Source: Tubulanus polymorphus (Eukaryota > Animalia > Nemertea). Taken from it: DNA of 64,000 nucleotides. The notes below the pieces were generated by a model. The model made no database searches and was not told where the DNA came from. It saw only the letters and a list, made by a program, of their open reading frames with translations. The stretch spans positions 14,356,150-14,420,149 of the forward strand of contig NC_134026.1 in the NCBI RefSeq assembly GCF_964204645.1. Reading direction: 5' to 3'. Made by a program: the position numbers and the translations under genes. Shown here one piece after another: positions 17,371-60,987 of this stretch. Position 1 is the stretch's first letter, and the number at the start of each line of letters is the position of its first letter.

Positions 17371-18028
17371 CTGCCATATGAATGGGAGGTGAAAAGAATA
17401 TAAAATCTAAAAATAGTTTTTACAAACTGGTTTTGTAATTTTACTCATTTTAAAACGAATAAAATTTATTCGAAAATAAGCAATTCTGAAACTACCACGG
17501 TTAGAAACGAAAAAACTACTGATATACCAATCACTTTAAGAAAATGGATTAATATTTTAGAATTAAAGCAAAAAAAAAATTAATTTTATTCAATATTTAT
17601 TTTTTTAATTAGTTAAACATCTCACCACTTTTATAATCTATTTGGAGATATGTACGATTGTCTACATAATCTATTTCGGATTCTTGATATTAAAATATGC
17701 TATATTCTATTCCATTTAAATTCCATGATTTTATTACTTTTTCGGCTTTGATAAATTGGTCTTCATACAATTATAAACGAGCGCGAAACTTGTCCACAAT
17801 CGACGCTGATAAACTTCAATGAGTCAAATTTTTACATAACTGCCTACGGCCGTATGAACCAGCAACGCAGAAAACCCGTTGTCGCTACTTTAAGCTTATG
17901 TTGATATCATATACTTCACCGTTACTTCACCGCTTCACCGTTTCAGCATGTCACTTCCGAAAGGAGCAGCCATTTTATGGTCCGTTATGCCAATATTACT
18001 AAATACGTCGTATTTATTTCAATTTTAG

Positions 18029-18246
18029 GCAAAAATATCGAAATTCTGTCACGCCTAGCACTGTCACCGGAAAAAATCCTGAATCTGTCTGAAGGATTGC
18101 ACCAAATAGCAGAAAGATCGCTCACCAACATAGGACGAGTCATAAATCGTACTGAGATCGCAGAAGGTATGATTTTGGAACAAGTGTCGGTGCCTATCGG
18201 TGTTCTTCTCGTTATTTTTGAGTCACGCCCTGATTGTTTACCACAG
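18029..18246 (+). CDS. ALDH18A1: Internal exon of host delta-1-pyrroline-5-carboxylate synthase (gamma-glutamyl phosphate reductase domain)
   Basis: '[20 protein letters not shown]...[38 protein letters not shown]' is the P5CS/ProA signature. Flanked by a TTTTAG acceptor (AG 18027-18028) and a CAG|GTATGT donor. Confidence 0.92.
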
Positions 18247-19912
18247 GTATGTATATTTGTATATTTGACGACTCATTAAATTAATAAAATGAAATCATCT
18301 ATTTGTATAACCAATGTCACGTATCAACTGTGTTCATAAATACATTTAAAGGTGACACTATATAGGAACATCGAGTTGAAGCATCGAAACATCTACGCAA
18401 TTATGAAACAACAAATTGAAAACATGCAGAAAAAAAAACTCGATATACTAAAACCTAATGATAGAAATGAGTACAAAATTCCGCCAACTCGCAATAACTC
18501 CAAAATACAGCAGATGTAATTCCACATATATACTACACATATTTGCCGCTACGCAGGGTAACCAGTTTTCCGGTTCCCCTGTTACGTAATTTGGTAGGTT
18601 CCGTACCGACCAGCGGACCCAACTACCTAAACACAATTTAGAGAGAAACTTATGTGAAAAACATGGATACGTACAGAAAATGGCGTATTAACCACAACTA
18701 AACAATATAAGTAAATACGAAATACCTGATAACATGTGAATAATCTGTGAAAAGTTGTCGAAACTACCTAGTCGAAACTACGGAGAATAAACCTAGTATC
18801 GGTCCCGCTTTGGGATAACGAGGGCTCTTTCAGCTAATCACTGCTCTTCAACGGTTCCGGCCGCGGCCTACATAATCGCGCTTTTTGACGTCATTATGAG
18901 AAAGCTGCTTGGATGTTAAGGGAACACCCTCTGCAGCACGGGGTACTCCCCAAACAACAAGTTGGATGAACAATAAATTGCACAACACGCTGTTTTGACG
19001 ACTTCGGTAAGTGATGATCGTCTTTTTTGCTGAATGTGATTGAATTATCTAATGTAGTGTTAAAATCCAGATAAGTTATGGCAATGCTGGGTTCAATGTT
19101 GATTTATTCCGTCAATGTCTTAACCCCTAAATTCTTAGTAAAAGTTATCAACTGTAACGTTGTGTTTTTTTTTTTCTGTCGACGTCGATTTATCTAGCGG
19201 CGAACCGTCATTAATCTGGACTATTGTATAACGGAGCTACGTTGTATTATTATTGGGGTGATAAATTAGTTGTTTAGATAACGGGAAAGGAAGCAGTGGT
19301 TGCGGTTAACAAGCAACCTTCGTGAATGCTTACGTCACACATAAGACATTCATAGAGGATAGGTGACAGTGATATAGATATCTATGTGGGGAAGCTTGAT
19401 ATACAGGCAGCCTCGAGCAAGTTCAAGTATTAAATTTCGAGCTCGTAACGAATACCACACGTAGGGACGCTTTACATAGCCCGGTGGAATGTTATGGTGA
19501 GATAATACGTCACAGGCTATTGTTGTGGGTATGGATTGTACACCAATGTTATGGTTCTGTTTATCTACCAGTGTTGTGGATCCGGGTTGGGTTCTCCGAC
19601 TAGCGTTGTAGTATTGAATCCCTCGGCGATGTTGTGCGGGATCTGTCTTTAGGTCGGATCTTCAGTCCTCGTTCTTGATTTTCTTCCAAGGCTCCCGTAT
19701 ATAACTTAACGACTTCTTAAATTATATATTCGTTCATTATCTCTTGACTAACATTAGATGTATACAATCTCTTCCTGAAGCTCTGTTATCTCAAACCTCT
19801 AAAATCAAAATCCAACTTTCTTAAACCGTTTTTTAACCTTTCCTATTAACAACTATAAACGCTCCCTTTTTATATCATTTTCTCTTTAGTAACGTGTGCA
19901 GGCAATGTGCGA

Positions 19913-32249: not shown

Positions 32250-32450
32250 TTATGTATTTATATGGAAGGAATATATTTTTGTTTTTCCAAATAAAGTAAC
32301 TGCTAACGTTAATTTTAAAATATCATTTATATCAAATCTATCAACATTAACACTTCCCATTTTGAATACTTTTTTTGATACCATTGAATAACCAACAGTT
32401 CCAACTGATAGTAATGCTCCATTATATAATCCAGTTATTATCACTCATTT
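32250..32450 (-). pseudogene. Small hydrophobic protein
   Basis: Homolog of 50353-50574. Confidence 0.65.
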
Positions 32451-32816: not shown

Positions 32817-32832
32817 TTATATAATGAAAAAA

Positions 32833-33536: not shown

Positions 33537-33550
33537 TTATTTTACATATT

Positions 33551-33904: not shown

Positions 33905-33933
33905 TTATGATACATATTTTTATTAAAATTTGA

Positions 33934-36900
33934 TTAACACGTTAGAATTCTTTTCATTATCTCGTTCTCTTTTGTTTCTTCTCTTTTAAATTTTAAGTAT
34001 TCATCTAAATTACATCCATAAGCAACTGTATGAATTCCATCATCCAGGATATAGCTTTTATCATCAAATGGGTTTAGACTTATCTTTTCAATTTCTTCAA
34101 TAAACATTTCATGATCTTCAGATCTTAAACATCTCATCTTATGTTTTTTAACTTCTTTTTTGAATATACAATTGATGTAATCTTTGAAATGAATATTCTT
34201 TTCTACTACACTTTTGGTTATTCCTTTTAACTTTTTAGCTTCACGTTCTTTAGTTTTATATGAATACATTTTAGATCTAATACCTATGAACTCTATCATT
34301 TCTTCACCACCTAATTCATCCTTAAACTTCCCTGGAACTTTTTTATTATCATTGCTAAACAATTCATGATGTTTAGGATAATTACTGAAATCAAAATGAT
34401 GTTTTAATGTTTTTAAATCATCAGTTATGTTATCAGTTTTTATCTTTAATATATAAGAATCTGTATCAAAATATAATATTTCTATATGTTTTTTCTCCAA
34501 AATGAGGTTGTAATACATTATAATAGAATTCATACATTAGTAAAAATAATTAGTAATTTGATAATGCTAAAACTGAAGCGCCAACATAGATTGGTTTATT
34601 AAATTTCATTGATGTTCTTCTCATCTTAACTGCAGCTAAATTTTCATAAGATATTCTGTTACCTATAAATTTAGGATATGTTTGTAAATGCCTTATCCTT
34701 TTGCCATTACTTACTAACTCAATATCATTTCTATTTCTAATATTTTCACAAGTCTTACCATAGAATGCATTATTCATTCACTTGAAGAAATCTTTCTCGA
34801 AATCAGTTTTAGCTTCAGTTCTCTGTTTGGTGTTAAAATCTATATATTTTTCTAACCACTTAGATTGACTGAATGAAATATATCTATGTACTTTTTTTAG
34901 AATCATTCCTTGACTCAAATAAAACTTTAACATTCTATAATGTACTACATAATTATATTTATCTTCTTGAGTTACCATTAACTTTTCTGTATGAATATGA
35001 TTTTCGGTAAGCTAGATTTCTAGATTTAAATCTTTTATCTTCAGGATATTCTAAATCTACAACAAAGAAGTAACCAGTATCTGAATCATCTGCAATATCT
35101 AGAATTCTTTTCTTCCAATCAAATTTATCATTATTTTCATTCTGTAAAACTTCAGTTAATTCAAATACTCCATAAGGTTGTGGTTCCATCATTGCCCAAC
35201 CATACAAATTATTTGCATCTATATATAATAACTTATATCCAGGGTTATCATTTACATCGAAATATCTATCACCTAATACACCTGAAACTCCTCCTCTTAT
35301 AGATTTTTCAAATAATAATAATTGATCTATATTTGTTAACAAATCCATTTTTATATCTGTAAATTTTAATCCACAATCCCATGTTAATCCTGGTGATGAA
35401 TAACAATGACAAGGATCAATGTTAAAATATTTTAGGTTTACATCTCTAAACCTTTAGAATATATCGGTTAATAATAATACATCTGATTTTAGATATAAAT
35501 CTACTAATTTTCCATGATTTTCTATTTTGAAATGATTCCAAATATTCAATGTTCTATTATATACTTCATTTTTAACATATTCATTTTTTAATTCATCATA
35601 GAATTGTTCTTTTAATAATTCAGTTATATTAAAATCATTATGTGATTTATAAAATGAATATGGAATTGCTCCTTTATATCTCATTAATTGAAAATCATCA
35701 TTATTTGGATAGTGTTGTTTTAATATTTTTAATTCATCATCAACTAATTATTTTGATAAGTTATCTAATGAACTATTTAAAAATCTATATGAATCTATAA
35801 ATCTTAGGCAACCAAATTGGAATGATATATAATTCTCAGATGTTTTAGCTAACATTCTAAATTTATAAGTTGGTATTTTATCTTTTGATCTATTTGAATT
35901 TAATCTTTCTATTTCATTATTAATTTCTTCTATTTTATGGCATAACTGTTTGATAAATAAATGTGCATCGTATCCTGATAGATTATAAAATATAACTGGT
36001 ACAAAGTTAATTTTCTTAGCTTGTAAGTTACAATTCTCATGTGCAGCGCCTCTAAACTTTCCGTTCAAATGATCATGGTCTCTTACTTTTTTATCTCTAA
36101 AATTAAATATCTTTTCACAATAACAACATTTATCTGCAAACTCAAATGCTTCTTTATCTTCTTCTGTCATTATAATTTCTATATTTTTATATAACTTTTC
36201 ATTAAATTTTATTTCATATTCAATTAATAAGTCACAAAAATGATTGATAACATTTTCATTTCTATAATCATAATATTCACTTTCAATTAGTTTGGATAAT
36301 CAGATTTAATATATAACCCGAAAGCAGCAGCTGATTGATGAATCTTTTTAATTGTATTTGTTATCGGTGGTTCATCTGAAAAATCATTTTCATTAGAATT
36401 TAATTCTAGCTTGATCGGTTAATTCTTTATTTAATGATTCAAAATCTCCATATATAACAAATGGTACTTTATTTTTGTAATCATATTTTTTGAATTCAAT
36501 ATTTTATCCTTTTCATTTGGTAAAACTAATTTACAATAATCATGATTTTCACATAATTGTTTATGATTTAATAATGTACTTTCATTACTGAATTTATGTA
36601 AACATTTCCTACATAGATATATTTTATTATGGTGATCACTTTCTGTTCTAAAGAATAAGTCTATTTGTTTAATCCACATATAATGATTCTCATAATATAA
36701 TATATCTATAACATCATTTGAATCATAATCTTTTGATAGATATAAAGGTTCTAATGTATAATGTTTTATATTGTTACCTTTTGTATTTGGTAATTTGATT
36801 AAATCAAATACATTTATTCTTAAATTATTATCTCTTTCTATTTTTGGGATGTTTTTAATTATAACAGGATACTTATCTATCTTATAATTATTTTCAAATG

Positions 36901-37871
36901 GTTTATAATGAGTTAATCTACAAATATTATAAGTTGCAGGATGTAAACAACTTATTATAGCCCATAGAAAACATTTATCATCTTCATTTTGTACATTTAT
37001 TACAGCATTAGTTTTAAATGGTAGTTTAGTATAACTCGATGTTTTAATATATGGTTCTTTATAATACCATACATTATTTTCATCAATTGGTTTTGATTTA
37101 GTTAACTTATTATATTTTGTGTTATAAACATATAAAGTCATAAATATTATTTCATCAAATATTAAACCCAGATCCTTCAGTTTTTACTTCATTATAACAT
37201 TTATCTAATTTATCATCTATATGTTGTTTAGATATAATATGTTGTGAATGAGAATTTATATTATATATTGGTTTATCTTCAGATTTTATAAACTTTACTT
37301 TAACTGATATACTAATTTTAGGATATTCAACATCAGTAATTATTTTTATTATTTCTTTCATATTTTCTAAATGTTTTTTATTTTCTTCTAATGTTTTTCC
37401 TTTATGAAATTTAAACTCGATAGCTGCTGGGCCAATATCACTTTTAAATGCTTCGGTTATCTCTATATCTTTTTTATCATCCAATAAATTAATATATTTT
37501 CTTACATCTTCCATGTATGGTCTTTTATTGTTTAATTTATTTTTTATGCTTTTAATTGTCTTCTGTTTCTTATCATTATCTTTATCAAAATAATCTTCAC
37601 CTAAAATATCATTATTCTTATTTCTAATATGACTTTTAGATTTTAAATGTTCATTATAATATCTTTTATCACTGAATGATTGATTACATGTATCACATTT
37701 GTATGTTTCTTTTTCATTCTTTAATTCATCTAATTTAGTTTCTAATATATCATCTTTATATTCTTGTTTCAATTTATTCTCTAAATGTGTTTTAGTTTTA
37801 TTGTGTCTTGCTTTTTGGGATTTATCTATATTGATATTACATGTTGGACAGTAGTACTTATTTGCTTCCAT
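33934..37871 (-). pseudogene. Protein-primed family B DNA polymerase, intein-free allele, many frameshifts
   Basis: N-terminal zinc fingers, vOTU-like DDKCFLW..HY, EndoVII-like CCYC..RDHDH..AHENCN, FYNLSGYD, FIDSYRF, YLKSDV, YIDANNLYG, MNNAFYGK, YFDTDS and KMYSY. Confidence 0.95.
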
Positions 37872-38572
37872 TTTAATATCAATTTTTTTTTAAATTGATT
37901 TAGAAGTTCAATGATTTATATCATGTATTATTTCAATCACACTTTACTAACACTTTTAATGTTTAAATATAGCTGCAAAGCAGCGATGACGGGTTTTCTG
38001 TAAAGCCATTCAGAATGATGGGAATTGTAGTAAATTGAAATATCGATACATAGAATAAAATGCATTGACAGATTCGAACCTAATATGCAACCACTGTGTA
38101 AACGTCAAATATGATTCAGCTTTGAAACTGAACATACGCGGACGTACAATCACAAATATTAATATATTTGACCAGGCATTTATTTTGGCATTCAAACGTC
38201 ATGATACTGTATTATCAGCATCTTTAAAAATGGATCTGTCCTATTAAGAACTCATCTTAAGCACATGCTGAGCCGATAGATTGGTTGAATTCACAGATAA
38301 GAACGTATTATGATTTAGAATAGGTTTAAGAAGTTAATGTTTTTATTGAAATATTTGAATAAATACATATATTGTAGTGTAGATTCAATCAATAAATTAT
38401 GAATTGATTTGGTCTGGGTTTCCGGCTGATGTTGATTTTGGCTTTTATGGATTACAAATTCTATAGTGATAAACAATTGATACCTGCAACATGTGTGTAA
38501 TTCAAACCTATTCCACAAGTTGCGTGTGTTTCCTAATAAACGGTAGAGTCACTCTTGATCTTGAGTTATTAG

Positions 38573-42164: not shown

Positions 42165-43372
42165 GGCCTACAACCAATCTGTCCGGATTTTAGGCCTACG
42201 CATACATAGGCCAACACAGACTAGTAGCCTCTATGAGGTTAAAGCTAAGTTCACTGTAAAGGAGGAATCAGATTTATTAAAATGCATGATAATTAGTGAT
42301 TAACTGGTACTGACTTGCAGTGATCAATCACAATTATCAATTTTACTGGCAAAAATGAAGATTTAAAAAAAAAAAATTTGTCTGAGCAGACAGCTTTATA
42401 AGCCAGACTTTTCCTTTGAATTTTTTCATCATTGATGAAACTGGTATTTCATGTCACTGCGACCGCAAGTGACGATTGCGTCGCAATGACTCATCGGCCA
42501 ATGTTCCTTGCGACAGGTTGCAACTGTCAGCGACGCCAGTCACAAGGAGTCGCACATGTTCTACTTTCTGTGATGCGACGCAACACGACCGTGGCAAGTG
42601 ACCTACGCGCTCTTGGGATGGCAGAAACTAGTCGCACACAGTCACCGAAAATCGTGTCGCAACCGACTTGGGCCCACACTTGCGACGTAATGCGACGCCT
42701 ACATCAATTTTACGAATTGAATACCCCAGAAACCTATCTTTGTTGAATAAGGTGTATGCGATGTTTAGGAGGGTTGAAATTCAATAGGCCTCCGACCAAT
42801 TCGTCCGGATTTTAGGCCTACGCATATACATAGGCCTACATAGGCTAGTAGCCTCTACGAGGTAAAAGCTAAGTTCACTGTAAAGGAGGAATCGGGTTTA
42901 TTAAAATGCATGTTAATTAGTGATTTACTGGTTCTGACTTGCAATGATCAATCACAATTATCAATATAATTGGCAAAAATGAAGGTTTTTTTTTAAATTC
43001 CTTCTGAGCTGACAGCTTTATAAGCCAGACTTTTCATTTGAGTTCATTTCATTTTTTCATTTCTCATCATTTTTCAGACTTTTCATTTTTCATCATTAAT
43101 GAAACTAAAATTTCATATCATTGCGACGCCATTCACTGCGACCGCCAGTGACGATTGCGTCACAACGACTCATCGACCTACGCTCCATTGGGACTGCCAG
43201 CGACAGGTTGCGACTCTCAGGGACGCCAGTCACAAGGAGTCACAGTCGCACATGTTCTTGTTCTACCTTCTGCGACGCGACACGGCCGTGGCAAGCAACC
43301 TACACACTCTTGCAACTGGCAGAAACAAGCCGCACACAGTAGCTGACAATCATGTCGCAACCGACTTACGCC
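42165..43372. repeat. Two tandem copies of a ~600-bp host repeat, the target of B; inverted copy at ~12830-13475
   Basis: 42165-42710 resembles 42787-43370. 42722-42792 matches the left flank of B (~23940-24006). Confidence 0.8.
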
Positions 43373-43374
43373 CA

Positions 43375-43693
43375 CTAATAAATTAGTTGTGTTGTTGCTA
43401 ATAAATTAGTTGTGTTGTTGCAACTAGAATTTAACTAGAATGTAACTAGAATTCAACTAGATTAACAAGCTAGTTGAAATATTGTTGTTTTTATTTATTT
43501 CTTGTTAAATTTAGTTGATTTTTGTTCCAACTACTAACAACTAGAATTCAACTAGAATGTAACTAAAAATACACTAGATTAACAAGCTAGTTAAAATATT
43601 GTGGAATTTTATTTGATTTTTGTTTCAACTACTAATAACTAGAATTCAACTCGAATGTTACTAGAATTCAACTAGATTAACAAGCTAGTTGAA
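43375..43693. repeat. CTAG-rich satellite-like repeat truncating element C
   Basis: ACTAGAATTCAACTAGATTAACAAGCTAGTT units. Confidence 0.75.
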
Positions 43694-43694
43694 T

Positions 43695-44303
43695 TTAAAT
43701 AAATTCATATTTAAATGGGTGTTGTAATCTAAATAGTAATTTTGATCTTTTATTATTTTTCAATTTATCCATATATTCATTATGTAAATCATGTGGAATA
43801 ATATCATTTTCCTCAAGTGCATTTTTCATCGATTTTCTATCTTTATTGTAGAATAAAACTAGAAATCTAATGTTTTCTCTAAAGTCTTTAACAATTGAAT
43901 TATATTTTTGATTTAAAACCCAAGTTGTTATCCCAAAATGTCTACCAGAAAAAGCTAAATAACATAACTCACTCTCTCTAATTTTTGAATCATGTAAATT
44001 TGCCCAATCATCTATGATAAATAAAGTATTTGATCCTTTATGAATATCAATTGCTATTTTTATACAATTATCTAAATTTTCTTTTACTGTTTTAGGATCT
44101 AATATAATAAATTTATTATTTCTAGTAATATTTCTATCATAAGTTTGATTAAATTCATATGTTGGACAAAATAATACTATATTATCAAAATAGTTTTCAT
44201 AAATAGTTTCTAATAAATTTAATATAAAATAAGTTTTTCCACAATTTGTTACGCCAGAAATTAACATATTATGAGGCTCAAATATAAATAATTCCTTATT
44301 CAT
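43695..44303 (-). CDS. A32-like packaging ATPase, open ORF
   Basis: GVTNCGKT, FIIDD and SGRHFG. Confidence 0.93.
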   Translation of the reverse strand: MNKELFIFEPHNMLISGVTNCGKTYFILNLLETIYENYFDNIVLFCPTYEFNQTYDRNITRNNKFIILDPKTVKENLDNCIKIAIDIHKGSNTLFIIDDWANLHDSKIRESELCYLAFSGRHFGITTWVLNQKYNSIVKDFRENIRFLVLFYNKDRKSMKNALEENDIIPHDLHNEYMDKLKNNKRSKLLFRLQHPFKYEFI

Positions 44304-45433
44304 TTATATATTTTTAATTTTACTTGATAATATCCAGTCATTGAATTTATCTGGCGATCCAACCCATTTTACTAAAGAATATTTTTTTCTTTTAATAGTT
44401 TTTGTTTTTAATACTTTTTCAATTTTATATTCTTGTTCTAGATTTTCAGTAGTTAAACTCAATTCTTCTTCATAAAAATACCCATCAACTTCTTCACCAT
44501 CTAAATCTTCTAATTTATAGACATATGGTTTTGTTGTAATTACCTTTTTTATTTTATATATTTCCCTAGTAAAATTTCGATCGTATCCTTTGTCAAATAT
44601 CTTTTTATCCTTAGAAATTCAAACATTTTGACCAACTTTAAATTTAGGTTCACCAAAATCATCTACAAAAAATGCTCCATATAAATTATTCCAAACAATT
44701 TTAGCATTTTCAGGTTTTCTAGCATCAATAGGTTTCATTCCAATAGAAGAATGATAAGAATTATTATATCCTTCAATCAATTTTGGTAAAACATCAATCC
44801 ATTTAAAAGTATTATTTGCTGTAAAATATTTCCACATTCTTGTTCTTAATGTTCTATTAAATCGTTCAACAACTGCTGCTTTTTTATCCGATTTTGTTGA
44901 AAAATATTTAATATTATGATTATCTAAGAGTTCATGAACAAGTGAATTATCAAACTCTTTTCCATCATCAAATTGTATTTTTTCTGGTTTTAGTTTATCA
45001 TCCGAAAGAAATTTTCTTTAAACATTTGATGTTTGTACAGCATCTTTTCTATAAAGTGGGAAGCTCCATACATAACGACTAAAAATATCAATTATATTCA
45101 ATAACCACCAATAATCATCATTATCTTTCTTAACATTTTTCATATCAATTAAATCTCCTTGCCACTGTTGATCTACATAACTTACCATAGTTTTACGAGT
45201 TTTATATTTTCTAACAATTTTTTTATGTGTTGTGTATGTTGGTTGTTCTAACATAAATTCATTTATATCTTTATATTTAACTAAATTTTGTGGGATTATC
45301 TTATCTAATTTATCTTGTTTTACTTGACGCCATATATTTTTAGTAGAAGAATATAAGCAACCGAACTCTCAGGGTTGTAATATAAATTTCTTAAATATTG
45401 TTCTTTAGTATTAGGAGTTTTTTTACCACCCAT
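44304..45433 (-). pseudogene. RVE integrase with chromodomain, disrupted
   Basis: WQGDLIDM, IDIFSRY, QFDDGKEF, VERFNRTL and YKIEKVLK..VKWVG..DW. Confidence 0.92.
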
Positions 45434-45463
45434 TTATATATCCTTAATTTTAACTTTATATTT

Positions 45464-46673
45464 CTAATATTGAATACTATCTAATTGTGAATTTACAATA
45501 TTTAATTGTGCGTCAGATATAATATAAATGTGCATTTTAAAATTTAAGCTTCCTTTTTTCTTTTTTATAAATAATTGTATTCCATCTTTAGTGTTCTGTA
45601 GTTTTTTCCCAGAACCATGTAATGAATTATCCTCTGTTGTTCTAAAATCTAACCATAATGCATATGTATTGCCGGTATAATAATCAATTTGATTAATATA
45701 ACAATTTTCAAATGATTTTACTTTTTCATTCATAAAATGTTTTCTAATTTCTGGCCATTGATCTACCATTCTCATTCCTTGACAAAATATTTTATTTGCT
45801 ATTCCTTCGATAGTTATTTCTACTTTTGTTATTTCAGGATTATAATAATTATCTACCTTTATTGCACCATTAGAATATGTTGCAATGGTAAAAAATATTA
45901 ATATACCTTTAATAGATCTTCTTGGGAAGTTAATATTCTCATTAATTATTTCATCATTTGCATTAATAGTTACAGTTTTAAATGTATCAATATAATCATA
46001 TAATAATGAAAATCCTTGATTGTATTGAGTTTGAATTGTGCTAGCAATATTTTCATTAGTTACTGTGTCATATTCTAAACATATATTTGATAATTTATAA
46101 CCCATATCTTTAACAACGCTAGATAATACAATTTTCTTGAATTACATATTTCTATAAAGGTGCATTATTATTTATCAATTCAAAGTCTAATGGAATTTTA
46201 TATTTGCTTTCATAAATCTTTTTTATCAAATTATCTACAGCATTAGTTACTACTGCATTATTGGCTTCAGATCTTAATTTATTATGGTTTTCCGATTGAA
46301 TACCCTGAAATATCATATTATTTCTATTTTTTTTAGTTAACCATAAATCTTTATAATGCATAAGTAATTTATAATCATCTAATGAGAAAACTGTTTCTGG
46401 ACCAATCTTTATTGTTAATTTTTTAATCAAATATCTTCCAACATTATCAACAACATAATTATTATTATTACCGGTTACTTTTATATCGGCTGATAAATAA
46501 ATACTATTTGGAACATAAAAAGTATTTTGTGTTAATCGAGGAATTCTAACACATAAAGTTTCATCGGGATTAATATTTGAAGGATTATGAGTAGTTATAT
46601 GATGTGATCTTTCTGCTTTAATAGCATTAGATATTCTAGAAATCTTAGAAGGACTTATATAACTCCCACTCAT
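45464..46673 (-). pseudogene. Putative major capsid protein (double jelly-roll), split into two ORFs
   Basis: About 400 codons, beta-rich, with 'VDNVGRYLIKKLTIKIG', 'YKIPLDF', 'YKLSNICLEYD' and 'NINFPRRSIKGILIFF'. Size, context and pattern fit a Polinton MCP. Confidence 0.75.
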
Positions 46674-46715
46674 TTATTTAACAAAAAAATTAATTATTTA
46701 TTTTTGATATCATGT

Positions 46716-48107
46716 TTACTTGATATTTTTTGATATCATATTTACTAACCCAAAAATAATAGCACTTACAACTGTAAATAAAAATAGAATAATATGTTCA
46801 GCAGCAAAGTTAAGAATATTCCCAGCAGATTTCAATATAAAACCAACAATTGATGCAATAATTCCTGGTAAAGCTGCAGCAGATTTTTTAGATAGTTCCC
46901 ATAAATATTTTGCTAATTTTTTCAAACCATCTTTAACTTTATCTTGTATAGAATTATTATCATTCGGGGGTTTATCCGGTTTATTTGGAGTAGGAGTAGA
47001 TTTTAAAGCATTTGATATTGCTAAACCAATTGTTGTAAATAACATAGTTACAGCTGTTAGAATTGAAAGAATTGTTATTCCTTCTAATTTAAATAATAAC
47101 TTTATTCTATCTTTCAATGATATTTCAGAATTTGGTTTTATCAATAAATCTTTAAAAATAACTTTTAATCTATTAATATTATAATCATATGATTTTAAAA
47201 ATAATTTAATTTCTTCTTTTTGTAATTCTGTGTTATATTCTAAATCATCTTTTTCTTTTTCTAAACGTAATTCTTTTTGCCTATATTCTATTTCATCAAT
47301 TACTTGATGATCTTATCAGACTTTAATTGTTCTATTTCTTTATTTTTATCAGTTAATTCTTTTTCTTAAGTTCTAATTTTAAAATCTCTTATACTTTTAT
47401 CATGCGCAATTTTATCAGATGCAAGTCTTATACGTTTAATTTCTCTAATTGCTTCAACAGAAAATATACTATTTAAATCTTCTATTTGTTGATCTGTTGC
47501 ATCAATTAATCCATTCGTTAAAAGTTTTTCAATTGGAAGTTGTTTCTGTTTCTGATTTCTTTTTGATTATTTCAAATAATTCATTAATTATTTAAATACG
47601 TCTATATTATCATCTCTTTCTTTTTGTGTAACATCAGTTATTTCATTACTATTACTTATTCTCTTAATTCTAAATGTTTCTAAATTTTTTAAAGTTGATT
47701 CCGCTAATATTTTTTTTAGTTTTGTCCTTTGATTAGTGATATCAATATAATAATCACCTTTCAAACGAAAAATAACATTTACCATTATCTAAAAATTTTT
47801 ATTTATATGCTAAAGGTCCAACGTTTTCATCATTTATGTTAAATTCAGAATTTTCAATTATATGTTTTAATTTAGGTACTTTGTTTAAATTATCTAAATC
47901 TTGTTTTACTAAATCTGGGTCTAAATTTTCAGGATTTCATCGTGATTCTGCATTTCTAATATAATCAGGCATATTTAAATTATTATTATATTCTGGCTCA
48001 TTACCATCATTAAAACTTGTTTCACTAAAATCAGGTTGTTGTTCATCAGTTTTACCAGGTTCATCTAAAGGATCCATTCCAATATCTTCTCCGCCTTCTA
48101 CATCCAT
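46716..48107 (-). pseudogene. Coiled-coil protein with multi-hydrophobic/amphipathic C-terminus (candidate membrane-active virion protein)
   Basis: TAAATG start at 48107. Fragments at 47588-47785 and 46716-47144 (ITILSILTAV..., LPGIIASIVGFIL...). Confidence 0.65.
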
Positions 48108-48123
48108 TTATATAATAAAAAAA

Positions 48124-49435
48124 TTAAAATTTAAAATATAATATTCCTCCTATAACAATTCCTATACAAGTTAAAGCTAATTTAGTATTTTCATGGAATT
48201 TATTATCATTATCAGTTTTAATTATATTATGTTGAATATCATCAGTTTTTATATTTTCTGATGTATTGTAATCTTTTATTTTAGAATCATTATGCAATTT
48301 AATATTTTTAGTTTTAGTTTCTGTTGATTGAATATGTTTTTTATTTTTTTCACCTTCCATTAATTTTGGAGCAGTAATAATCTTTTTATTTATATCATTT
48401 AATCCAATTGAATTATTTATTGTTGCAGTTTCAATTAGATTATTATAACCAATTATATTTCCCATCTTTAATACTAAATCATTAGAAATAATTAATAGAT
48501 TAGGGCCTATACAATAATTTAGTCTTACATGAGATTTATCTAAATAATTTTGATATCTTACAATGTTTTCTGGAATTGATCTATTTTTATCATTATGAAT
48601 GGAATCTTCAAATAATACTTTAGATTGTTTCTGCGCATCAAATGAAGTACTATTATTTCCAACTATTGGTGATCTTGTTTCAACTTGCGCACCTAAAATA
48701 CATATCAAATAAGTTCTAATTGATTGATTTATTCTTTGTATACCAGGTTTTGTAAATCCTTCACTATAAGATTCAATAAAATTAATCCATCCATTATTAT
48801 TATCAATTCTATAATTATGATAAGCTCCAATTCTATGCATATAATCAATTCTTTTTATTTCATACTGTTCACCAACGCCATGTAATCTACCATGCGTTCT
48901 AAAATCGGAATTAATATTTATATTAAATTCTTTACATATTTTATAAAACTTAGATAGATTAATATTATTATCCAATTCTTTAAAATATTTCGATCCAGGT
49001 AAAGGGCATTCTAATTCATTTAATATTATTGTGATTTGAAAATATATGTGAAATCTAAATATTGTATGAATGAATTTTAAATCAGAATATTTCAAATTTT
49101 TATCTAAGTTATTCAAGTGTTCATGCCAACTTACACCACAACCAGTTGTTGCACAATGAACAGCAAAATTTAATTGATGCTGCCAATATTTCATATTAGA
49201 TTTTACTTTATATATATTATATTCATCTCGAGTAAAAGTAACTTCATATGTATTAAATATATTTTTCCATTTTAGAAATAAAATAGTTTGTTTCAGTAAC
49301 ATAAATTTCTAAATTAATCAATGAAGGTAAAACTAAATTTTTAAATATTATCATGTTACTAAAATCTATTGCTGGAATATTATATTTATAATATTCATTT
49401 GATTTATTATATTGGAAAGATTTTGGAAACCCCAT
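48124..49435 (-). pseudogene. Conserved Maverick protein with C-terminal TM anchor (frameshift near 5' end)
   Basis: WQHQLNFAVHCATTGCG, FRFHIYFQ, GFTKPGIQRINQSIRTY and a terminal TM segment. Confidence 0.75.
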
Positions 49436-49451
49436 TTATATAACTAAAAAA

Positions 49452-49886
49452 TTAATAATCTATTAATTCTTTTAATAATTTATCTTGTTCTTCAACTATT
49501 ATATGACCATTTAAACTTATTATATAATCTAGTGTGTTCTTCAATTTATTAATTTCTTTTATATTAGTTTTAATTTTTTCTTTATTACTTTTTATATTCA
49601 ATTTTGAACTTATACCAGTTAAAACAGTTGAAATTAATCCTAATACACCAATTGATATAGCTAAAGGTGTTAATGGACTGAATATTGCTAGAAATGTTAT
49701 TACAGAACTAATTGTAACCGAACCACTTATAATCAAATAATATATAATTTTACTTTTTAAATATTTTTTCCTTTTAGCTTTTAAATCATTTTCAAATTCC
49801 AATATTTGTTTTTCTAAATATATTTTTAATTTAGTTTTATTTATATCATGAGGAATAGTATCAATACTATCAACTTTATCTTCCAT
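49452..49886 (-). CDS. Two-TM protein with coiled-coil tail
   Basis: Two adjacent hydrophobic helices. TAAATG start. Confidence 0.75.
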   Translation of the reverse strand: MEDKVDSIDTIPHDINKTKLKIYLEKQILEFENDLKAKRKKYLKSKIIYYLIISGSVTISSVITFLAIFSPLTPLAISIGVLGLISTVLTGISSKLNIKSNKEKIKTNIKEINKLKNTLDYIISLNGHIIVEEQDKLLKELIDY

Positions 49887-49907
49887 TTATTTAGAAAAAA
49901 AATTAAT

Positions 49908-50328
49908 AATTAGTAAATTTATATGCTACAAATATAACAACAACTGTTCCACCTAAAATCCATATTATTTCATATTTCTGTTGTTCTTTACTCGGGGTAT
50001 ACTAATCTGATAATTTAGGTTTGTATAGATGTAATTTTTCTTTATTGGTTACTGCGTTATATAAACTCATTGCATCATCAACTGATTGAAAATCTCTTTG
50101 TGAAATCTTCTGATCATATAATTCCTTGTTAATATAATCCATATAGTTTTGTCGTTTTTCTCTATATTCTTCTGCTGCTTTATTGTATTTCTCTAATGCT
50201 AAGTTATGTCTTTTTTGTTCTGTTAATGATCCATTTTTATCAATATGTTTGAATAAATAACCGCCACCAGTAAATGCTAAAGCGTTAACAATTGCCGATC
50301 CTATAATAGTTATAACTGCAGAAGCCAT
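49908..50328 (-). pseudogene. Homolog of 31814-32233 (premature stop)
   Basis: Near-identical protein to 31814-32233. Confidence 0.8.
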
Positions 50329-50352
50329 TTATTTATTGAAATAATTACGCAT

Positions 50353-50574
50353 TTATATGGGAGGAATATATTTTTGTTTTTCCAAATAATCAATAGTTAA
50401 ATTAGATAAAGTAACTGCTAATGTTGATTTTAAAATATCATTTATTTCAAATCTATCAACATTAACACTTCCCATTTTGAATAGTTTTTTTAATACCATT
50501 GAATAACCAACAGTTCCAACTGATAGTAATGCGCCATTATATAATCCAGTTATTATCCACTTATTATCACTCAT
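50353..50574 (-). CDS. Small hydrophobic protein
   Basis: 73 aa, conserved with B. Confidence 0.7.
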   Translation of the reverse strand: MSDNKWIITGLYNGALLSVGTVGYSMVLKKLFKMGSVNVDRFEINDILKSTLAVTLSNLTIDYLEKQKYIPPI

Positions 50575-50930
50575 TTATTTATCAAAAAAATTACTATCAT
50601 CAAAATATTTAGTTATCTTAGTGATGATTAATTCAACATTCATTTCATTACTAGTTTCATTTGTATATATTTCAATTATTATTTTTTTAATATCATCGAT
50701 GATAAAATCTTCATCTAATTCATAAAATCTTAAAGATTCTCTAATTAAATTAGTAATCTTTTCTACATTTAAAGTTTCTTTATCTATTGTTTTTTCATAC
50801 TCAAATGCTGTTTCATTAGAAAATGCAATACTTTTAATATGTGTAATTACATCATTAATGTTAAATATCATTTCTTTCTCACGTTTAAAATTAAAACCAA
50901 AACATATACTCGGTCCAACAGTTATATTTG
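50575..50930 (-). pseudogene. Hypothetical Maverick protein
   Basis: Homolog of 32448-32816. Confidence 0.65.
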
Positions 50931-50947
50931 TTTATATAATGAAATAA

Positions 50948-51734
50948 TTACTCTCTACATCTTATAACTTATTCATAAATTACAGGGAAATTATTTAAAT
51001 CAATTAAGTATCCATTGTGATTTCTTACTTCTAATTTGAAATTATTGAAATGTGGAATACAAGGTTTAAAATCACATTCAGCTAAATTATAATTTATTTG
51101 CGTTCCAAATTGTTTAACGTTCTTCAATGGTAAAATATTTAATATACTAGAATTACATGTTGTATCTTTAGTTGCTTCAAATGTTTTTGTAGGATTAATT
51201 AAATTACAATAAATATAAAAGTGCGTAAAAGGTATTATATTTGAGCTACCGTGTATGTTTCCTAAAATAAGTTTATCTGGAGGAATTCCTAACAGTTTAG
51301 CAAAAGGTTTTTTTTTACCACGTAAGCATGTAGATTTGAATGTGAAAGAGTACCAATATTTTTATCATCAAACTTTGCTTTAATTTTATTAGAGATCTCA
51401 CTTTTTATGAATTTAATATTAAATTTAGAATCACTACCTATTCCAATCCGAGTTTTTCTATTAATTTCTTGCGCTAATGTTTCTAAATTATATAATCCTG
51501 GTGTAAGCATAAGTTGAATCCATTTTTCTTCAAATTTATCAAAAATAAAAAAGCTTCTATGTTCATCAGTTTATCCGATATATTATAAAAAGAGTTATAT
51601 AAACTTATATTTATTAATTTTAAATCAACACAATTCTTAAATTCTCTATCTAATTGTACTAGTAAATTATGTGATTTATAATTTGTAAGTTTTCTAGAAT
51701 CAACAAATATTCTGTATTCTTTTAATTCTACCGT
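50948..51734 (-). pseudogene. Putative minor capsid (penton) protein
   Basis: Homolog of 32833-33536. The start codon reads ACG, and there are frameshifts. Confidence 0.65.
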
Positions 51735-51802
51735 TATTTATAACATAAAAAAATTACCGCTCGTCACTTAAAATTAATTTTAATAAAATTTTTCCTTAAA
51801 TA

Positions 51803-53125
51803 ATGGATGAGAAGATACCATGCGAAATTTGTGGTGAACTTCTAAGAAAAAGTAATATGGCTCGACATATGAAAAAACATGATGAAAATTATAAACCCCC
51901 TAAAATAAACTGCCCAAAATGTAATAAATTATTCTCAAGAAATTATGTTAAAAAACATTCAGAGAAGTGTAAAATTAATGGCGCAACGGCTAATATTGAT
52001 AGTAACGAAAGTAATAGTAATTCTGTTGAAGTTGAACCTGAAATTATTTGGAAAAGACCTTTCTTATTCTATGATAAGGATAATATAAAAGATCATTTCT
52101 GTGAGCCTTGTCGAATAAAGTATAGCCCTGAAAATATAGAAGATTGGGAGAATCATCAATTTCGTAAAGTAAATATAGATAAAATTTCTAATAAATTTGA
52201 AACTGAATTCAATGAAAGAAAAAATAATATATTAGAAAAAACAAAATATGAGAAAACGTTACCAGATAATAAAGAAACAGTTGAAAATTTAGAAAAACAA
52301 TATAATGAATTAACAAGAAAAACATATTATTGTAAATATTGTAAATTGATCATTACAACAAGTAATTCAAATCTACATAATAGAACAATAAAACATAAAG
52401 AAAACGTATGAAAATACCAAGAGCTTAATGAAGATCTATTACCAATAAATTATAAACGAAAATGTCCACAATGTAGTTATCCTTAAGACAAGAAGGTACT
52501 GTGTTATTTTGTGTTGATTGTGGATGGCAAAAGAATTTATGGGGTGAAGAAAAAACAAGAAATTTTCTCATAGATCCAAAATTAAATTATCTAGATGAAA
52601 TTTTTAAAATATTTTCTATAGAAGATCATACACCAGAATATATGCAATGGCTTGAAAAAAACTAAAATAATAGAAAATAAAAATGGTGAAATAACTAAAA
52701 AAGATATTATAAAAACAATTATTTCCTCAACATTTAACACAAAACAAAAGAAAATGTATTTATATTTATTATTTAACGATTATTATGAAAAACCTAAATT
52801 AACAGAAGAAGATATGGAAAATATTAAAAAAATATTTAAACAAATATTAATGTATCATTTGGAAAATAGAATAACAGATTCAATAAATTATGAATTCTTT
52901 TTAAATAAGATTGTAAATTATTTAAACATAGATATTATAATTCCATTTGATGAATTAAGAAACAAAAAGAAACAAAGAGAGCGAGATGAAATGTGGAACA
53001 ATATAACACGTTATTTAAATGAGAAAAATGAAATAGAAGAACCTAAACAAATTATACAAGAACAATTAAATGAAAAAGAAGAAACCAATAGTGATTTCGA
53101 GTTTGATGATATTGATCCATTTTAA
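51803..53125 (+). pseudogene. Multi-C2H2 zinc-finger protein (ORFs 51803-52411 and 52652-53125, probably one broken gene)
   Basis: CEIC..MARHMKKH, CPKC..H..C and YYCKYC..HNRTIKH. Confidence 0.7.
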
Positions 53126-56100
53126 TAACCATAAGGTAATGTTTTTATACCATCATCTAAAATATGTCTTTTATCATCAAATGGATTTAAACTAGTTTTT
53201 TAAACTTCATTAATGTACATCTCGTGATCTTCTGATCTTAAACAATTCATTTTGTGTTTCATTACAATTGAGTTATATAAACACTGTATATAATCTTGAA
53301 ATTCTATATGTTTATCAACCACATGTTTTGTTATTCCTTTAAACTTTTTAGCTTCATGATCTTTTGTTCTGTAACTATACATTTTACTTCTTATCCCAAC
53401 AAATTCAATCATTTCATCACCCCCTAATTCATCTTTAAACTTACCAGGAATCTTTTTATCATCATTGCTAAATAGTTCATGATCTTTGGGATAATTGCTA
53501 AAATCAAAATGATGTTTTAATGTTTTTAAGTCTTTTGTTATGTCATTTGTCTTTATTTTTAGTATGTACGCATCCGTATTGACTGCTATTAATGGAAATC
53601 CACAGTTAAATGTACCATCTTCAGTTGATAAATCATAAACATAATCTGTTGGGTTATATATTTCAAATAAATCTTTAACTACTTCAGTTAAATCTTTTTC
53701 TGTGTGGCTTAAATTAAAGCAATTTGGTTTAGATTTAATCAATCCAATATTCATATTGAAGCCTAATGAATTACATAATATATTTAACCCTGATATAGCA
53801 ACTTTTCCTCTGTGTGCAAAGGTTATCTTTTATCCTTTGTAAATTTTTTAGCACCATCTGCTGCGTAGAATCCAATGAAGAACCATTTTCTTAGATTATT
53901 TTTTGCATTTAATACATAATCTGGAACTATCTTTTCTTTTGTTGAAGTATTACTTTTCACTATTGCGTGAATATAGAATTCATCATTATATTTTATAGCA
54001 AAATCTTTAGGATTATTTACAAGTATTCTATAAACTGCTGATGATTTCATAACATCCATGATTCTAAATGTTTTATGTGAATAAACTTCACAGAATTTCT
54101 CAATTCTTTCTAATAATTTTAAGTCTTGATTGCGAAAATACCAACAATATTTATTACCCCAAACATAATTATACACACCTGCTGAACCATCGCCCATGAA
54201 AAATCCTTTGATAAAATATTCTTTTTCTTCTAATGTTTCAGGTTCTATATTATAAATATTATCAATAATTTCATCAAATGACATATGATTCATTCTTTGG
54301 AAAAATCTTTTATGTAATAATTCGTCTCCAATTTTCATATCAGTTGGTTTTATTTCATCGCCATTTCATTTAATTAAACTATGATCTTCTGTAACATCTA
54401 CAAACCCTAATTTAGTTCTAACTCTATAGATTTTCTTATTTGTTTTATGCCTAATAATATTCTTTAATTTTTTCCATTCATTTCCATTTCTTGTCCAAAC
54501 ATTCATTAATCCATTTATTTGTATTAATTCTTTTTCACCATATGAAATATAACATTCATTTTGTTGTGGAATTATTTCTGAAATTCTTCTTATCAATATT
54601 TTATCATTACATTTTAATAATATTGGGGTGTCAGCTGTTACAGAATCAAAATATAATATTTCAATATGCTTTTCCCCAAAAAGTGGTTGTAAAACATTAT
54701 AATAAAAATCATACATTAATAATTTTGATACTTCTAAAACAGTTGAACCAATGAATATAGGTTTATTAAATTTCATTGACGTTCTTTTAACTGCTGTTAA
54801 ATAATCTTCAAATCTTTTATTTCCTAAATGTCTAGGACTTGATTGTAAATGTCTTAATCTTTCAGAATTATTTACTAATTCAATATCATTTCTATTTCTA
54901 ATATTTTCGCATGTTTTACCATAAAAACTATTATTCATTAATTTGAAGAAATCTTTTTCAAAATCTGTTTTTGATATGGTATCTGTTGAGTATTGAAATC
55001 TATATATTTTTCTAACCACTTCGATTGATTAAATTCAATATATCCATGTACTTTCTTTAATTTCATTCCTTGTTTTAGATAAAATTTTAACATTCTATAA
55101 TGAACGATATAATTGTATTTATTATTTTGAGTAAGTATTAATTTTTCTGTAAAAACATGATCTTTCGGTTTTATTTTCTTCTGGTATTCACTTAAATAAC
55201 TATCATCTACGGTTAAATGTTCTGGGCAATAAGGTAAGTTTCTTGTTTTAAACTTTATATTTTCAGTATATTCTAAATCAACTACAAAGAAATAACCAAT
55301 TGGTGCTTCATCTTCTAAACTCGTAATTGCGCTTTAACAATTAGTTTTATCATCATTTTCAACTTCTGTTAATATAAAATTTTTATATAGTTGAGGTTGC
55401 ATCATTGCCCAACCATATGAATTATTGGCGTCAATATATAATAATTTATATTCACCATATGCTCCCATAACACCACTAATTCCACTTCTAATTGATTTTT
55501 CAAATAATAAAACCATATCTGGTTCTTTTAATAAATCTAATTCTACATTTGTATATTTTAAACCACATTGCCAGGTTAAACCAGGACTAGAGTAGCAATA
55601 ACAAGGATCAACATTAAAATGATTCAAATTAACTTCTCTAAATTTTTCAAATATGTCAGCCAATATCATAACATCTGATTTTAAATATAAATCAACTAAT
55701 TCACCATGATTTTTCATCTTAAAATGGTTCCAAATATTTAATGTTGTATTAAACACTTCGTCTTTCACATACTCCTCTTTTGATTGATCATAAAATTGAT
55801 CTTTTAATAATTCTGTTACATTAAAATCATTGTGTGTTTTATAAAATGAATAAGGAATTGCGCCTTTATATCTCAATAATTTAAAATCTTGTTCATTTGG
55901 ATAATAATATCGAGTTATAACAAAATCATTATCAACTAAACTTTTTCATAAATTATCTAATGAACTTGCTAGAAATCTATAAGAATCTAAAAATCTAATG
56001 CAACCAAATTGAAATGAAATATAATTTTCAGATGTTTTAGCTAATAGTTTAAAATCATATTTTCTTACATTTACACCATTCATAGCATTATATTCTTCTA

Positions 56101-57705
56101 TTTCTTGATTAATTGCGCCCAATTTTCCCGATAATTGTTTTATAAATAGATGGGTATCATAGCCTGATAAATTATGAAATAATATTGGTACGAAATTAAC
56201 GTTCTTAGCTTGTATATTGCAATCTTCATGAGCAGCTCCACGATATTTTGAATTTAAATGATCATGATCTCTAACTTTTTTATCAAATGAATAAAAAGTT
56301 TTTCACAATAACAACAATGAGATGCATAATTAAAATCAATTTCATCTTCTTTTGTCATAACTATTCTTTTATTTTTGTTTAATAATTTTGCAAAATCACT
56401 TTCTAATTCAATCATTTTGTCACAAAAATCATTAACTACATTTTCACCTCTAAAAGAAATATATTGACTTTCATCTTTTCTATAATATAACAAATCTATA
56501 GCATTTTCATCATCATAATATTCTGTTAAATATAAAGCTTCCAATGTATAATCTTTAATATTTTCACCTTTTGTCTTTGGTAATTGCATTAATTCAAATA
56601 CATTTATTCTTAAATGATTAACTTTTTCTATTTTAGGAATCATTTTTATAGCTACTGGATATTGTTCAATTTTATATAATGTTTCGTATTTCCGATAATC
56701 TGTTATTCTACAAACATTTTCCTGTGTTGGATGTAAGCAACTAATAATTGACCATAGAAAACATTTATTATCTTCATTTTGAATATTTATTACTGCTTTT
56801 GTTGTAAATGGTAATTTAATATAAGATGATGCTTTAATATCCTTTTCTGTTGTAAAGTTTGAATCATTTTTAAACATTTTATTACTTTTTGATGTTTTAT
56901 TCCTTTTTGTATTTTAAACATTTAAATCTAAATATATAATTTCGTTCAATGTTAAGCCAGAACCCTCAAAATATCTTTCTTCAATATGACGTTTAAATTC
57001 ATTAAATATTTTTTCTAACTTCTCTTTTATTTGTGTTTTTGAAATTATTTCTTCAGAGTGTGTTTGAATATTATAATTCATTTTTTCTTCTGACTTTATA
57101 AAACTTACTTTCCCAGAGATACTAATTTTTGGATCAACATCTGTTATCAAATCTAGTATTTTTTCTATTATTTCATTAAATGTACTATAATCTTCTATTG
57201 TTGTACCTTTAAAAAATCTAAATATAATAGCTGCAGGACCAATTTTACTACGTAATGTTTCTAAAATTTAAATTGTATCTTTTATTTCTGATGAATCAAT
57301 ATAATTTCTAACATTTTCCATGTAAGGTTTATTTGAAATGGATTTAGTTTTTGAAGTTGGTTTTTTTACTTTTTGAGGTTTATCATCAATATAATCTTTT
57401 CATAAAATATTATTACTCAAATTTTGGTGGTGTTTTTGTGATTCGAGATGTCTATTATAATTCCTTTTTACTATAAATTCATTACAAACTTCACATTTTA
57501 TTTCATCCACATTCATATTTTCTAATCTTTCTTTTCTTTCATTGGAATTTTCTGGAGTTTCAAAATCTATTACATTTTTTATATGATTTGCAGTTTTTTC
57601 ATGTCGTGTTTTATGAGATGTATCGATGTATTTTTTACAATATGTGCAATAATATTGATTTTTATTAACATTATTATTTTCTGGTTGGTGTTCATTCTCC
57701 CCCAT
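53122..57705 (-). pseudogene. Protein-primed PolB, intein-containing allele, disrupted
   Basis: Same motifs as the B polymerase (DNKCFLW, YIDANN, KLMNNSFYGK). The YFD|TD motif is split by a ~1.07-kb insert. Confidence 0.95.
53578..54644 (-). mobile_element. Intein with LAGLIDADG homing endonuclease in pPolB
   Basis: Block A SVTADTPIL and block B VDVTEDHSL. LAGLIDADG motifs FIKGFFMGDG and FFIGFYAADG. Block F YVYDLST and terminal N|T. One nonsense codon (54366-54368) and a frameshift near 53825. Confidence 0.93.
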
Positions 57706-59188
57706 TTATTAGGAAAAAAAATTACTTGTGGTGATGAGTGGTGTCTCGCCCTCTCGCCCTCTGATCTGAAACCTACATCTTCCAATTACTGATGAGGCGT
57801 TCCGTTGATTTCGGCCACCTGTTTTCTGAGTTTCATCACATAAAAATCATCTTCTATTGGATTTGACTACTAACTACTTTGAAACGAAATGTTAAACTCT
57901 GATAATAATACAACAGTCTCTTTCTGCGCGTAGTTTCTATGGATGTACTGTGCTTCCTATTTTAAACTTGAAGTTATTTAAAGATAACACCGGTGGGAAT
58001 AGCAATCATTAATCATGGCGCGCATACTGGCGCGAATCTGAAAGTTTGTGACGTCATTTCATAAATAGATAAAGAAGGAAGGCTCCGAGAATATCCAAAT
58101 CACAGGTTACTGTGAATAACTGGTGCTCGACCACATACAAGTTAAAAATGTACTTCCTTGTTTGTGAAGTAAGTTCATTCATACTGTTATTAAAAGCAGT
58201 TCTTTTTAAACATTCTATAATAGTATAGATTTGTTCGTGGATATCAATACTTCAAAAAATCAGCAGCGGTTCATTTATTTATTGTACCGGTACGCGTTTT
58301 CTTAATTGAATTGAATTTGTCCGGTCCAAAAGGCGGGTCATACTAGTTAGCGTCAGAAAATGTCAGCGTCGGTGATACCTTGTCATCGTCGATATGAAAC
58401 GGTCTAAAGTCAGTTTATACATCACATACATTACAAATTGGAAGTCCCTTGTACATGTACATCACATCGTGACCCAGCGGCGATGGTAATGTCATAGAAG
58501 AACAAAGTCAGTTGAAAATACCTACCCACTGCACCGATAAAGAATGATTGCCAGCCAGAGACCAGTGACAGTCAGTAATGGGCAGTGATGGTACCGGTCG
58601 TGATTATGTTTTTATAATAGTTATTGGACGTCAATTTCATATGTGAATTGTTGTCCCCATCTGATCGCTTGACTTGTCAGACTGACTTGTCACTCCTCTA
58701 CTAATAGTAACATTATAAGGCCTTCCCTCCTGCATAATTTACCCTAGTAAATCCGTCAAGGAATATTGTAATGCTAGCAGAATATAGTCACCATATAGGC
58801 TAAATTCCTCAGTTGCGTTCACTCGAGACTGACCTCATTCAGTGCGCCACAATAGTAGAAGAGATAAAAATACTAAAAAACTACTGATCTAGTACACCAG
58901 CTCTATCAATGCTTATAGGGACACTGACACAAACACACATACTGACGCGCTGTGGGAATGACACACAGGCAATACACATACGTAGATGGATACTGTTCGC
59001 ATCGGGCTTAAATTTCGATGTTTAGAGGCTCACAGTGAGTAAACAGTGGCATTCTGATTAATATCATACGCAGTATAAGTCAATGCAGCGTAGTACTTGT
59101 GATACAGAATTGATTCACCGACAGTGAAAGTAAGTTGCAGTAGTTTATATGCTTTCAGTAAGATCCAGTGTGAAAAAGAATATGATGA

Positions 59189-60832: not shown

Positions 60833-60987
<155 letters not shown>

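Follow-up and report, generated by a model that had tools for sequence, protein, structure and literature searches.

The locus analysed here raises the question of whether a complete intein can reside in a gene of an animal chromosome and, if so, how it came there and whether it functions in animal cells. The original prediction held that inteins are not a recognised feature of metazoan genes, in agreement with the available part of the survey of eukaryotic inteins by Green (2018, PMC5784728), which states that they are absent from metazoan genomes. The window, which is the whole stretch of DNA analysed (64,000 nt of the ribbon worm Tubulanus polymorphus), very probably carries a full-size LAGLIDADG intein in motif C of a protein-primed PolB (pPolB) of a Maverick in a worm chromosome; this intein is likely derived from giant viruses, and its intact copies would splice and are predicted to spread by cutting intein-free copies. 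A broader proposal, that giant-virus-derived inteins colonised Maverick polymerases and are functional in animals, with obligatory splicing in ribbon-worm germline replication and homing between Maverick families in one nucleus, is offered tentatively, as a possibility somewhat short of an even chance. The earlier description of the intein stands, but it did not include the empty site, the presence of many copies or the broader set of pPolB inteins.

Features of the window discussed in the text, by position (pPolB, protein-primed PolB; a slash marks the intein insertion point)
Feature	Position	Strand	Basis or remark
Host P5CS exon, AG/GT ends	18028..18249	+	74/74 residues identical to XP_074640408.1 (Tubulanus polymorphus)
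Maverick 2, intein-free	24327-37970		68-nt terminal inverted arms, 99%
Empty insertion site YFD/TD in pPolB of Maverick 2	34459..34473	-	no insert
A32-type packaging ATPase, Maverick 3	43695..44303	-	PF04665, E 8e-14
rve integrase in pieces, Maverick 3	44304..45368	-	PF00665, E 4e-4, below cutoff
Putative major capsid protein in pieces, Maverick 3	45464..46673	-	PF16903, E 0.006, below cutoff, weak
VLTF3-like ORF converging on pPolB	52622..53125	+	PF04947, E 7e-6
pPolB of Maverick 3, interrupted by intein	53122..57705	-	PF03175 on pieces; tblastn of P0003
C-extein +1 Thr of motif C (YFD/TD)	53575..53577	-	sequence
Intein, pol-c allele, Ser1 to Asn	53578..54644	-	1,067 nt, about 356 codons
Intein C-terminal splicing region	53578..53640	-	block F YVYDLST, block G FNCGFPLIAVN
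Second LAGLIDADG motif, GFYAADG	53853..53873	-	sequence
First LAGLIDADG motif, GFFMGDG	54186..54206	-	sequence; PF14528 on intact relatives
Intein N-terminal splicing region	54381..54644	-	block A SVTADTP; block B TEDH at 54392-54381

In the minus-strand frame, the N-terminal junction of the insert reads HIEILYFD/SVTADTPIL at 54644 and the C-terminal junction reads FNCGFPLIAVN/TDAYIL at 53578. Block B (TEDH) lies in the stretch VDVTEDH, and the residues of splicing (S1, TEDH, the block F Asp of VYD, the terminal Asn and Thr+1) are all kept, as are 18/18 of the invariant residues of a 74-sequence intein alignment. The penultimate residue is Val, the usual His being missing; the Mimivirus intein has Lys at this position, and 116 relatives extracted from 121 proteins have Lys in 68 cases and His in 16. 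Since a penultimate His is common but not universal, its loss does not bar membership of the class 1 inteins. Two lesions lie within the intein: its frame meets a stop codon at 54368 and shifts near 53830.

Profile searches, which the original prediction had proposed for both the Hint and the LAGLIDADG parts, gave hits above cutoff for each. When queried with the first 273 intein residues (X in place of the stop), TIGR01445 (intein_Nterm) scored 33.9 bits versus a cutoff of 24.5 and covered residues 2-90, and PF14528 was above cutoff on the intact relative P0003. PF14890 matched the X-read intein piece below its cutoff (E 1e-4), and Pfam gave no match to the three separate intein-containing frames. 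The PI-PkoII intein matched the window intein at E 3.4e-6, and 503 database proteins matched it at E ≤ 1e-3 (best 7e-99, 62% identity). Chance resemblance is ruled out because of the TIGR01445 hit, the PI-PkoII match and the 503 protein matches. Together with the complete set of blocks, these results bear out the identity of the insert, and sequence analysis confirms the stretch from 54644 to 53578 as a canonical class 1 intein with a LAGLIDADG endonuclease, for which splicing is predicted.

The insertion site had been identified with the YxD/TD site of other PolB inteins, and this was confirmed from two sides. YGD/TDS is the archaeal and Mimivirus pol-c site described by Ogata (2005, PMC549080), and our extraction of the Mimivirus intein at 1053-1403 agrees with that study. 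Among the best 120 of the 503 matches, the top 3 were pPolBs and the other 117, Mimivirus included (39%), carry the PolB domain PF00136.

The fold was judged on the intact relative P0003, whose intein is 64% identical to that of the window. Its AlphaFold model reached a pLDDT of 92.4 when 74 sequences were given as input (3 sequences gave a pLDDT of 49). In a Foldseek search, the top four PDB matches of this model were the intein endonucleases TliVMA (the best, E 4e-17), PhoVMA and PI-PkoII, with E values from 4e-17 to 8e-16, and PI-PfuI and PI-SceI were also among the matches. Among viral structures, NCLDV polymerases headed the named matches. The modelled fold of P0003 is a Hint fold with a LAGLIDADG domain.

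The host gene was recognised by its pPolB domain and by its neighbours. PF03175 fell below cutoff on the window piece (E 2e-5) and above it on intact P0003 (62 bits), and the polymerase part of the window gene is 55-61% identical to P0003 (tblastn). The ESM Atlas returned generic pPolB clusters only, at 0.84 or lower. At the nucleotide level, the integrase region of Maverick 3 shares 75% identity with the integrase/ATPase part of Maverick 2. No adenain protease turned up in the decayed Maverick 3 in a simple motif scan, and neither terminal repeats nor a target-site duplication were seen for it; a TA repeat dominated one repeat scan. At 60836-60979 the window has a perfect (TA)n stretch, about 140 nt long. 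By its gene content, the element around the intein qualifies as a Maverick with a pPolB, an rve integrase and a packaging ATPase. The single stop and single frameshift originally described in the intein were both found, but lesions are not limited to it: the host pPolB is broken too, with six further stops and at least 2 further frame changes outside the intein. Decay is therefore element-wide. These gene-wide lesions and the element's genes agree with the earlier view of an integrated, decayed Maverick with an intein-bearing pPolB.

The same site lies empty 19 kb from the intein. The pPolB of Maverick 2 reads ILYFD/TDSYIL without an insert, and blastn matches between the pPolBs of Mavericks 2 and 3 (77-78% identity) stop precisely where the intein is inserted; at that point the flanks agree at 15/15 nt upstream and 11/15 nt downstream. 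This scarless absence in a paralogue indicates that the insert is intein-like and lies in a conserved host motif. Maverick 2 carries an rve integrase (PF00665, E 1e-9), an ATPase and a broken pPolB, in a gene order unlike that of Maverick 3.

Other remains of such elements were seen nearby. A third Maverick remnant, at 5100-11600, shares 2.6 kb of sequence at 89% identity with the integrase and ATPase genes of Maverick 2. A 217-aa ORF (24432-25085, plus strand) near the left terminus of Maverick 2 has Cys pairs and an HIDH...N motif; by eye it resembles a free-standing HNH endonuclease, and Pfam gave no match to this ORF at E 0.01. Nested palindromic repeats of 30-57 nt are found at 24007-24195, at the left end of Maverick 2, and at 29515-29869, in its middle.

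Intact or near-intact relatives of the intein were found in four other pPolB families of metagenome records. P0003 is an intact pPolB of 1,693 aa with an intein 62-64% identical to that of the window, P0005 is an intact pPolB of 1,603 aa (intein 47-49%), and P0004 is a pPolB with an intein of 48-50% identity; the P0453 intein is 71% identical, and P0541 (1,476 aa) is an intact pPolB of the P0412/P0541 family. In that family, motif C of P0541/P0412 reads ASD/TDS instead of YxD/TDS, and the intein has 333 aa. The 17 full-length pPolB inteins, which represent 4 families with many near-copies, have Ser1 and the terminal Asn in 17/17, Thr+1 in 16/17 and TEDH in 16/17. The pPolB fragment P0429 carries an intein whose end reads FQAGVGEIIVHN and which is nearer to other giant-virus inteins.

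A profile search of shorter proteins extended this set: 116 of the best 120 of 254 matches were examined, 57 were closest to a pPolB-clade intein, and 41 of these 57 had pPolB extein sequence attached. Most of these inteins come from one decayed family, present in high copy number on long contigs. The P0004, P0397 and P0398 clusters are decayed high-copy intein-bearing pPolBs (55 and 41 members, contigs up to 825 kb), mostly with inteins ending His-Asn, and they probably represent another eukaryotic host genome. Elsewhere such inteins were sparse. Viral contigs scanned with the window endonuclease piece yielded no relative. Alignment A1 and a C-terminal pattern, run against viral and metagenome sequences, retrieved at least 171 loci, and none of 164 junctions from these was a pPolB, all being YGD and of giant-virus type by eye. 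In a search of 50% representatives, none of the 141 new matches among the best 150 of 2,706 was assigned to pPolB by its extein (113 were rPolB and 28 were without assignment); two P0004-type intein pieces were among them. The pPolB intein clade is real but rare.

Reads from a separate WGS study gave a depth of 237-243x over the polymerase flanking the intein, 233x over the N-terminal part of the intein and 142x over the endonuclease. With 1,934 Mb of reads and a 1C of 358 Mb (from the accessible part of PMC8468679), this amounts to about 26-45 intein-bearing copies per genome, if the species of the run is Tubulanus polymorphus and no free viral DNA inflates the depth. Of 50,557 aligned reads, 1,660 were at least 99% identical to the window, 21,407 fell at 95-99% and 27,490 at 90-95%; the family has thus diversified, since most reads lie at 90-99%. 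Read joints skipping the intein were absent from the matches listed, which exclude 136 further rows. None of the matching data sets listed was of RNA, which carries no information on expression. These data suggest a multi-copy intein-bearing Maverick family in the worm genome. The drop in depth at 53680-54213 (142x versus about 235x) may reflect faster divergence or deletions in some copies, and one read contig skips 224 nt within this interval.

Copy number is no proof of splicing in worm cells, because polymerase could come in trans from Mavericks of an intein-free family. The intein may never have functioned in animal cells: the element would have come from a protist or other non-animal host, would ride as a passenger in the worm and would be multiplied by helper polymerases or segmental duplication. 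We judge this explanation, the main rival, unlikely but not remote. In its favour, the nearest intein relatives come from giant viruses, which are known mainly from protists, the window copy is dead and an intein-free Maverick family is present as a possible helper. On the other hand, nearly all copies of the Maverick 3 family appear to bear the intein (233x versus 243x), the spread of reads over 90-99% identity suggests long residence and diversification, and the gene set and sequence of Maverick 3 are near those of neighbouring Maverick 2 (70-86% nucleotide identity).

The origin of the intein was addressed with trees, as the original prediction had proposed. The tree contains 42 of the 68 rows that dereplication left (the rows omitted are L165 and 25 more of NCLDV type, the near-copy P0397 among them) and is unrooted, with no archaeal outgroup. 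A branch at 100/99 sets the six main pPolB inteins apart as a single clade among the giant-virus PolB inteins of the same site. This clade joins NCLDV inteins ending FN[TS]G[FYT]PL at 81/83, and at 95 with the Hint columns only. Because the sister group differs between trees (P0007 in earlier ones, the FN[TS]G group in later ones), no single donor is assigned. Judged from these alignments, the pPolB inteins are likely affiliated with giant-virus PolB inteins. The predicted giant-virus affinity is thereby upheld, while the proposed direction of transfer, with the giant virus as donor and the Maverick as recipient, is read from nesting in a tree that has no root. P0429 falls outside the pPolB clade in the trees and is possibly a second, independent capture, as its sequence placement would suggest.

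Comparison of inteins with their exteins bears on how the clade spread. A single ancient gain in a Maverick ancestor, followed by purely vertical descent with precise losses and no homing between families, would be consistent with the one clade formed by the main pPolB inteins and with the AU test, in which a single origin of P0429 with that clade is not rejected (p 0.365). Intein and extein identities also run parallel for the window, P0003, P0004 and P0412: to the window, the inteins are 64, 50 and 41% identical and the exteins 62/59, 42/48 and 43/53%, which fits co-descent without recent homing. In the case of P0005, however, the exteins are 24/30% identical to those of the window and the intein 49%; over all intact or in-frame comparisons, the P0005 exteins are 19-30% identical, yet its intein is 41-49% identical and nested in the pPolB clade. 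Since the P0005 intein is far more alike than its exteins, lateral spread is suggested. The C-extein of the window is also closer to that of the empty Maverick 2 (77%) than to that of intein-bearing P0003 (59%), and this together with the P0005 mismatch indicates mobility or precise loss. For homing itself, the patchy occurrence of the intein is at most indirect evidence. Purely vertical inteins usually lose their endonuclease, whereas both endonuclease motifs fit the expected pattern in 12/17 full-length pPolB inteins. We consider purely vertical descent unlikely.

An assembly chimera or contaminating non-animal DNA is very improbable. No long read or contig spans the whole stretch among the matches listed, and the link to the P5CS exon, 35 kb off, rests on the window sequence itself. 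However, that exon is 100% identical to the nemertean RefSeq protein XP_074640408.1, encoded on a 31.9-Mb scaffold, as expected for the animal host originally proposed; the separate-study reads fill 30/30 bins of 43000-59000 and include a contig across the N-extein/intein junction; and three related Mavericks lie among host repeats in the window. No further P5CS exons were found in the 64-kb window, so the Mavericks are probably inside P5CS introns. The single exon in 64 kb implies very long flanking introns full of Mavericks and other repeats. The weakest alternative takes the insert for a Hint/endonuclease domain that does not splice and that became part of the polymerase, as the HNH and VSR inserts did in nematode pPolBs. 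This reading could appeal to the nuclease inserts known in pPolBs (available part of PMC10748475) and to the missing penultimate His, but it is scarcely credible given that the insert splits catalytic motif C exactly, is absent without scar in a paralogue, keeps all splicing nucleophiles and lacks a His that is in any case rare among its relatives.

Our preferred explanation, an intein of giant-virus origin active in Maverick polymerases, would operate as follows. In a replicating element, the polymerase would be made as a precursor with its catalytic YxD-TD motif split by the intein, and since the intein splits motif C, the polymerase would work only after splicing. Splicing would proceed by an acyl shift at Ser1, transesterification to Thr+1 and cyclisation of the Asn, and block B TxxH and the block F Asp would aid it, replacing the penultimate His. 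In the most economical history, the intein would have made a single ancient jump into a pPolB out of the RNA-primed PolB of an NCLDV infecting the same cell, by way of the short motif C sequence common to rPolB and pPolB. Later it would have been inherited along with Mavericks, at times absent and at times homing from one family to another; in homing, the endonuclease would cut empty alleles and repair would copy the intein in. Entry into the worm germline would have been mediated by the rve integrase, followed by amplification with the element and then neutral decay of the window copy.

If the broader proposal of function in animals is true, it would describe the first natural intein life cycle within a metazoan genome, and the intein would mark gene flow linking giant viruses with the Polintoviruses of animals. 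Tens of intein copies are likely present in an animal genome despite the absence from metazoans stated in the available part of PMC5784728, and an integrating virus as carrier would offer a way through the germline barrier. The intein would have crossed between two major PolB classes, a jump between distant homologues of the kind thought implausible for direct homing (Ogata 2005, PMC549080), and would record contact between giant viruses and Mavericks. With filled and empty sites in one genome, homing specificity becomes directly testable. Krupovic speculates, in the accessible parts of PMC11071308/PMC11161782, that the nuclease inserts of pPolBs stem from intein invasions, and our data support this speculation on intein invasion of Polinton polymerases (PMC11161782).

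To go by the listings of full-text searches and by passages of PMC12220804, PMC3671162, PMC13768754, 10.1101/299784 and the papers cited here, no report of a Hint-bearing intein in a Maverick or an animal nuclear genome turned up. For eukaryotic transposons, the available part of PMC5718144 gives GIY-YIG and REL nucleases and not LAGLIDADG. Adintoviruses and other Mavericks/Polintons (available part of Starrett 2021, PMC8502044) share with Maverick 3 the pPolB, rve integrase, packaging ATPase, putative capsid gene and integration in the animal germline; intein, homing and LAGLIDADG have 0 occurrences in the main text of that study. HNH and VSR inserts of Polinton pPolBs (Jeong 2023, PMC10748475; Krupovic 2024, PMC11161782; each in its accessible part) are, like the window insert, endonuclease domains within a pPolB, but they are permanent domains elsewhere in the protein, whereas here a complete intein interrupts the active site. 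Intein, Hint and LAGLIDADG have 0 occurrences in the main text of Jeong 2023 (PMC10748475). The Chilo iridescent virus intein, cited in PMC549080, is likewise an intein in an animal-infecting virus; that virus, however, is a non-integrating NCLDV with a Gln-type intein that is not in the host germline, whereas the element here is integrated.

The closest precedent, going by the available part of Gallot-Lavallee (2023, PMC10710043), is the set of inteins in endogenous giant-virus polymerases of algae. That study describes inteins of Klebsormidium, Tetrabaena and a labyrinthulomycete that lie in endogenous viral DNA polymerases, and as in those cases the intein enters a eukaryotic nuclear genome within the polymerase gene of an endogenous virus; the hosts there are algal or protistan, whereas the present one is an animal. 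The words animal, metazoa, Polinton and Maverick have 0 occurrences in the main text of that paper. By its own features, the window intein is like the pol-c inteins of NCLDV PolB (Mimivirus APMV Pol intein, 39-42% identical) and Thermococcales PolB, with which it shares the YxD/TD site, Ser1, TxxH, Asn and Thr+1, two LAGLIDADG motifs and a length of about 350 aa. Unlike them, it resides in the pPolB of an integrating Maverick rather than in an RNA-primed PolB, and in an animal chromosome with tens of copies; its site reads YFD, YMD, YLD or ASD besides YGD. It is a real, canonical pol-c intein for which both the class of host protein and the kind of genome are new.
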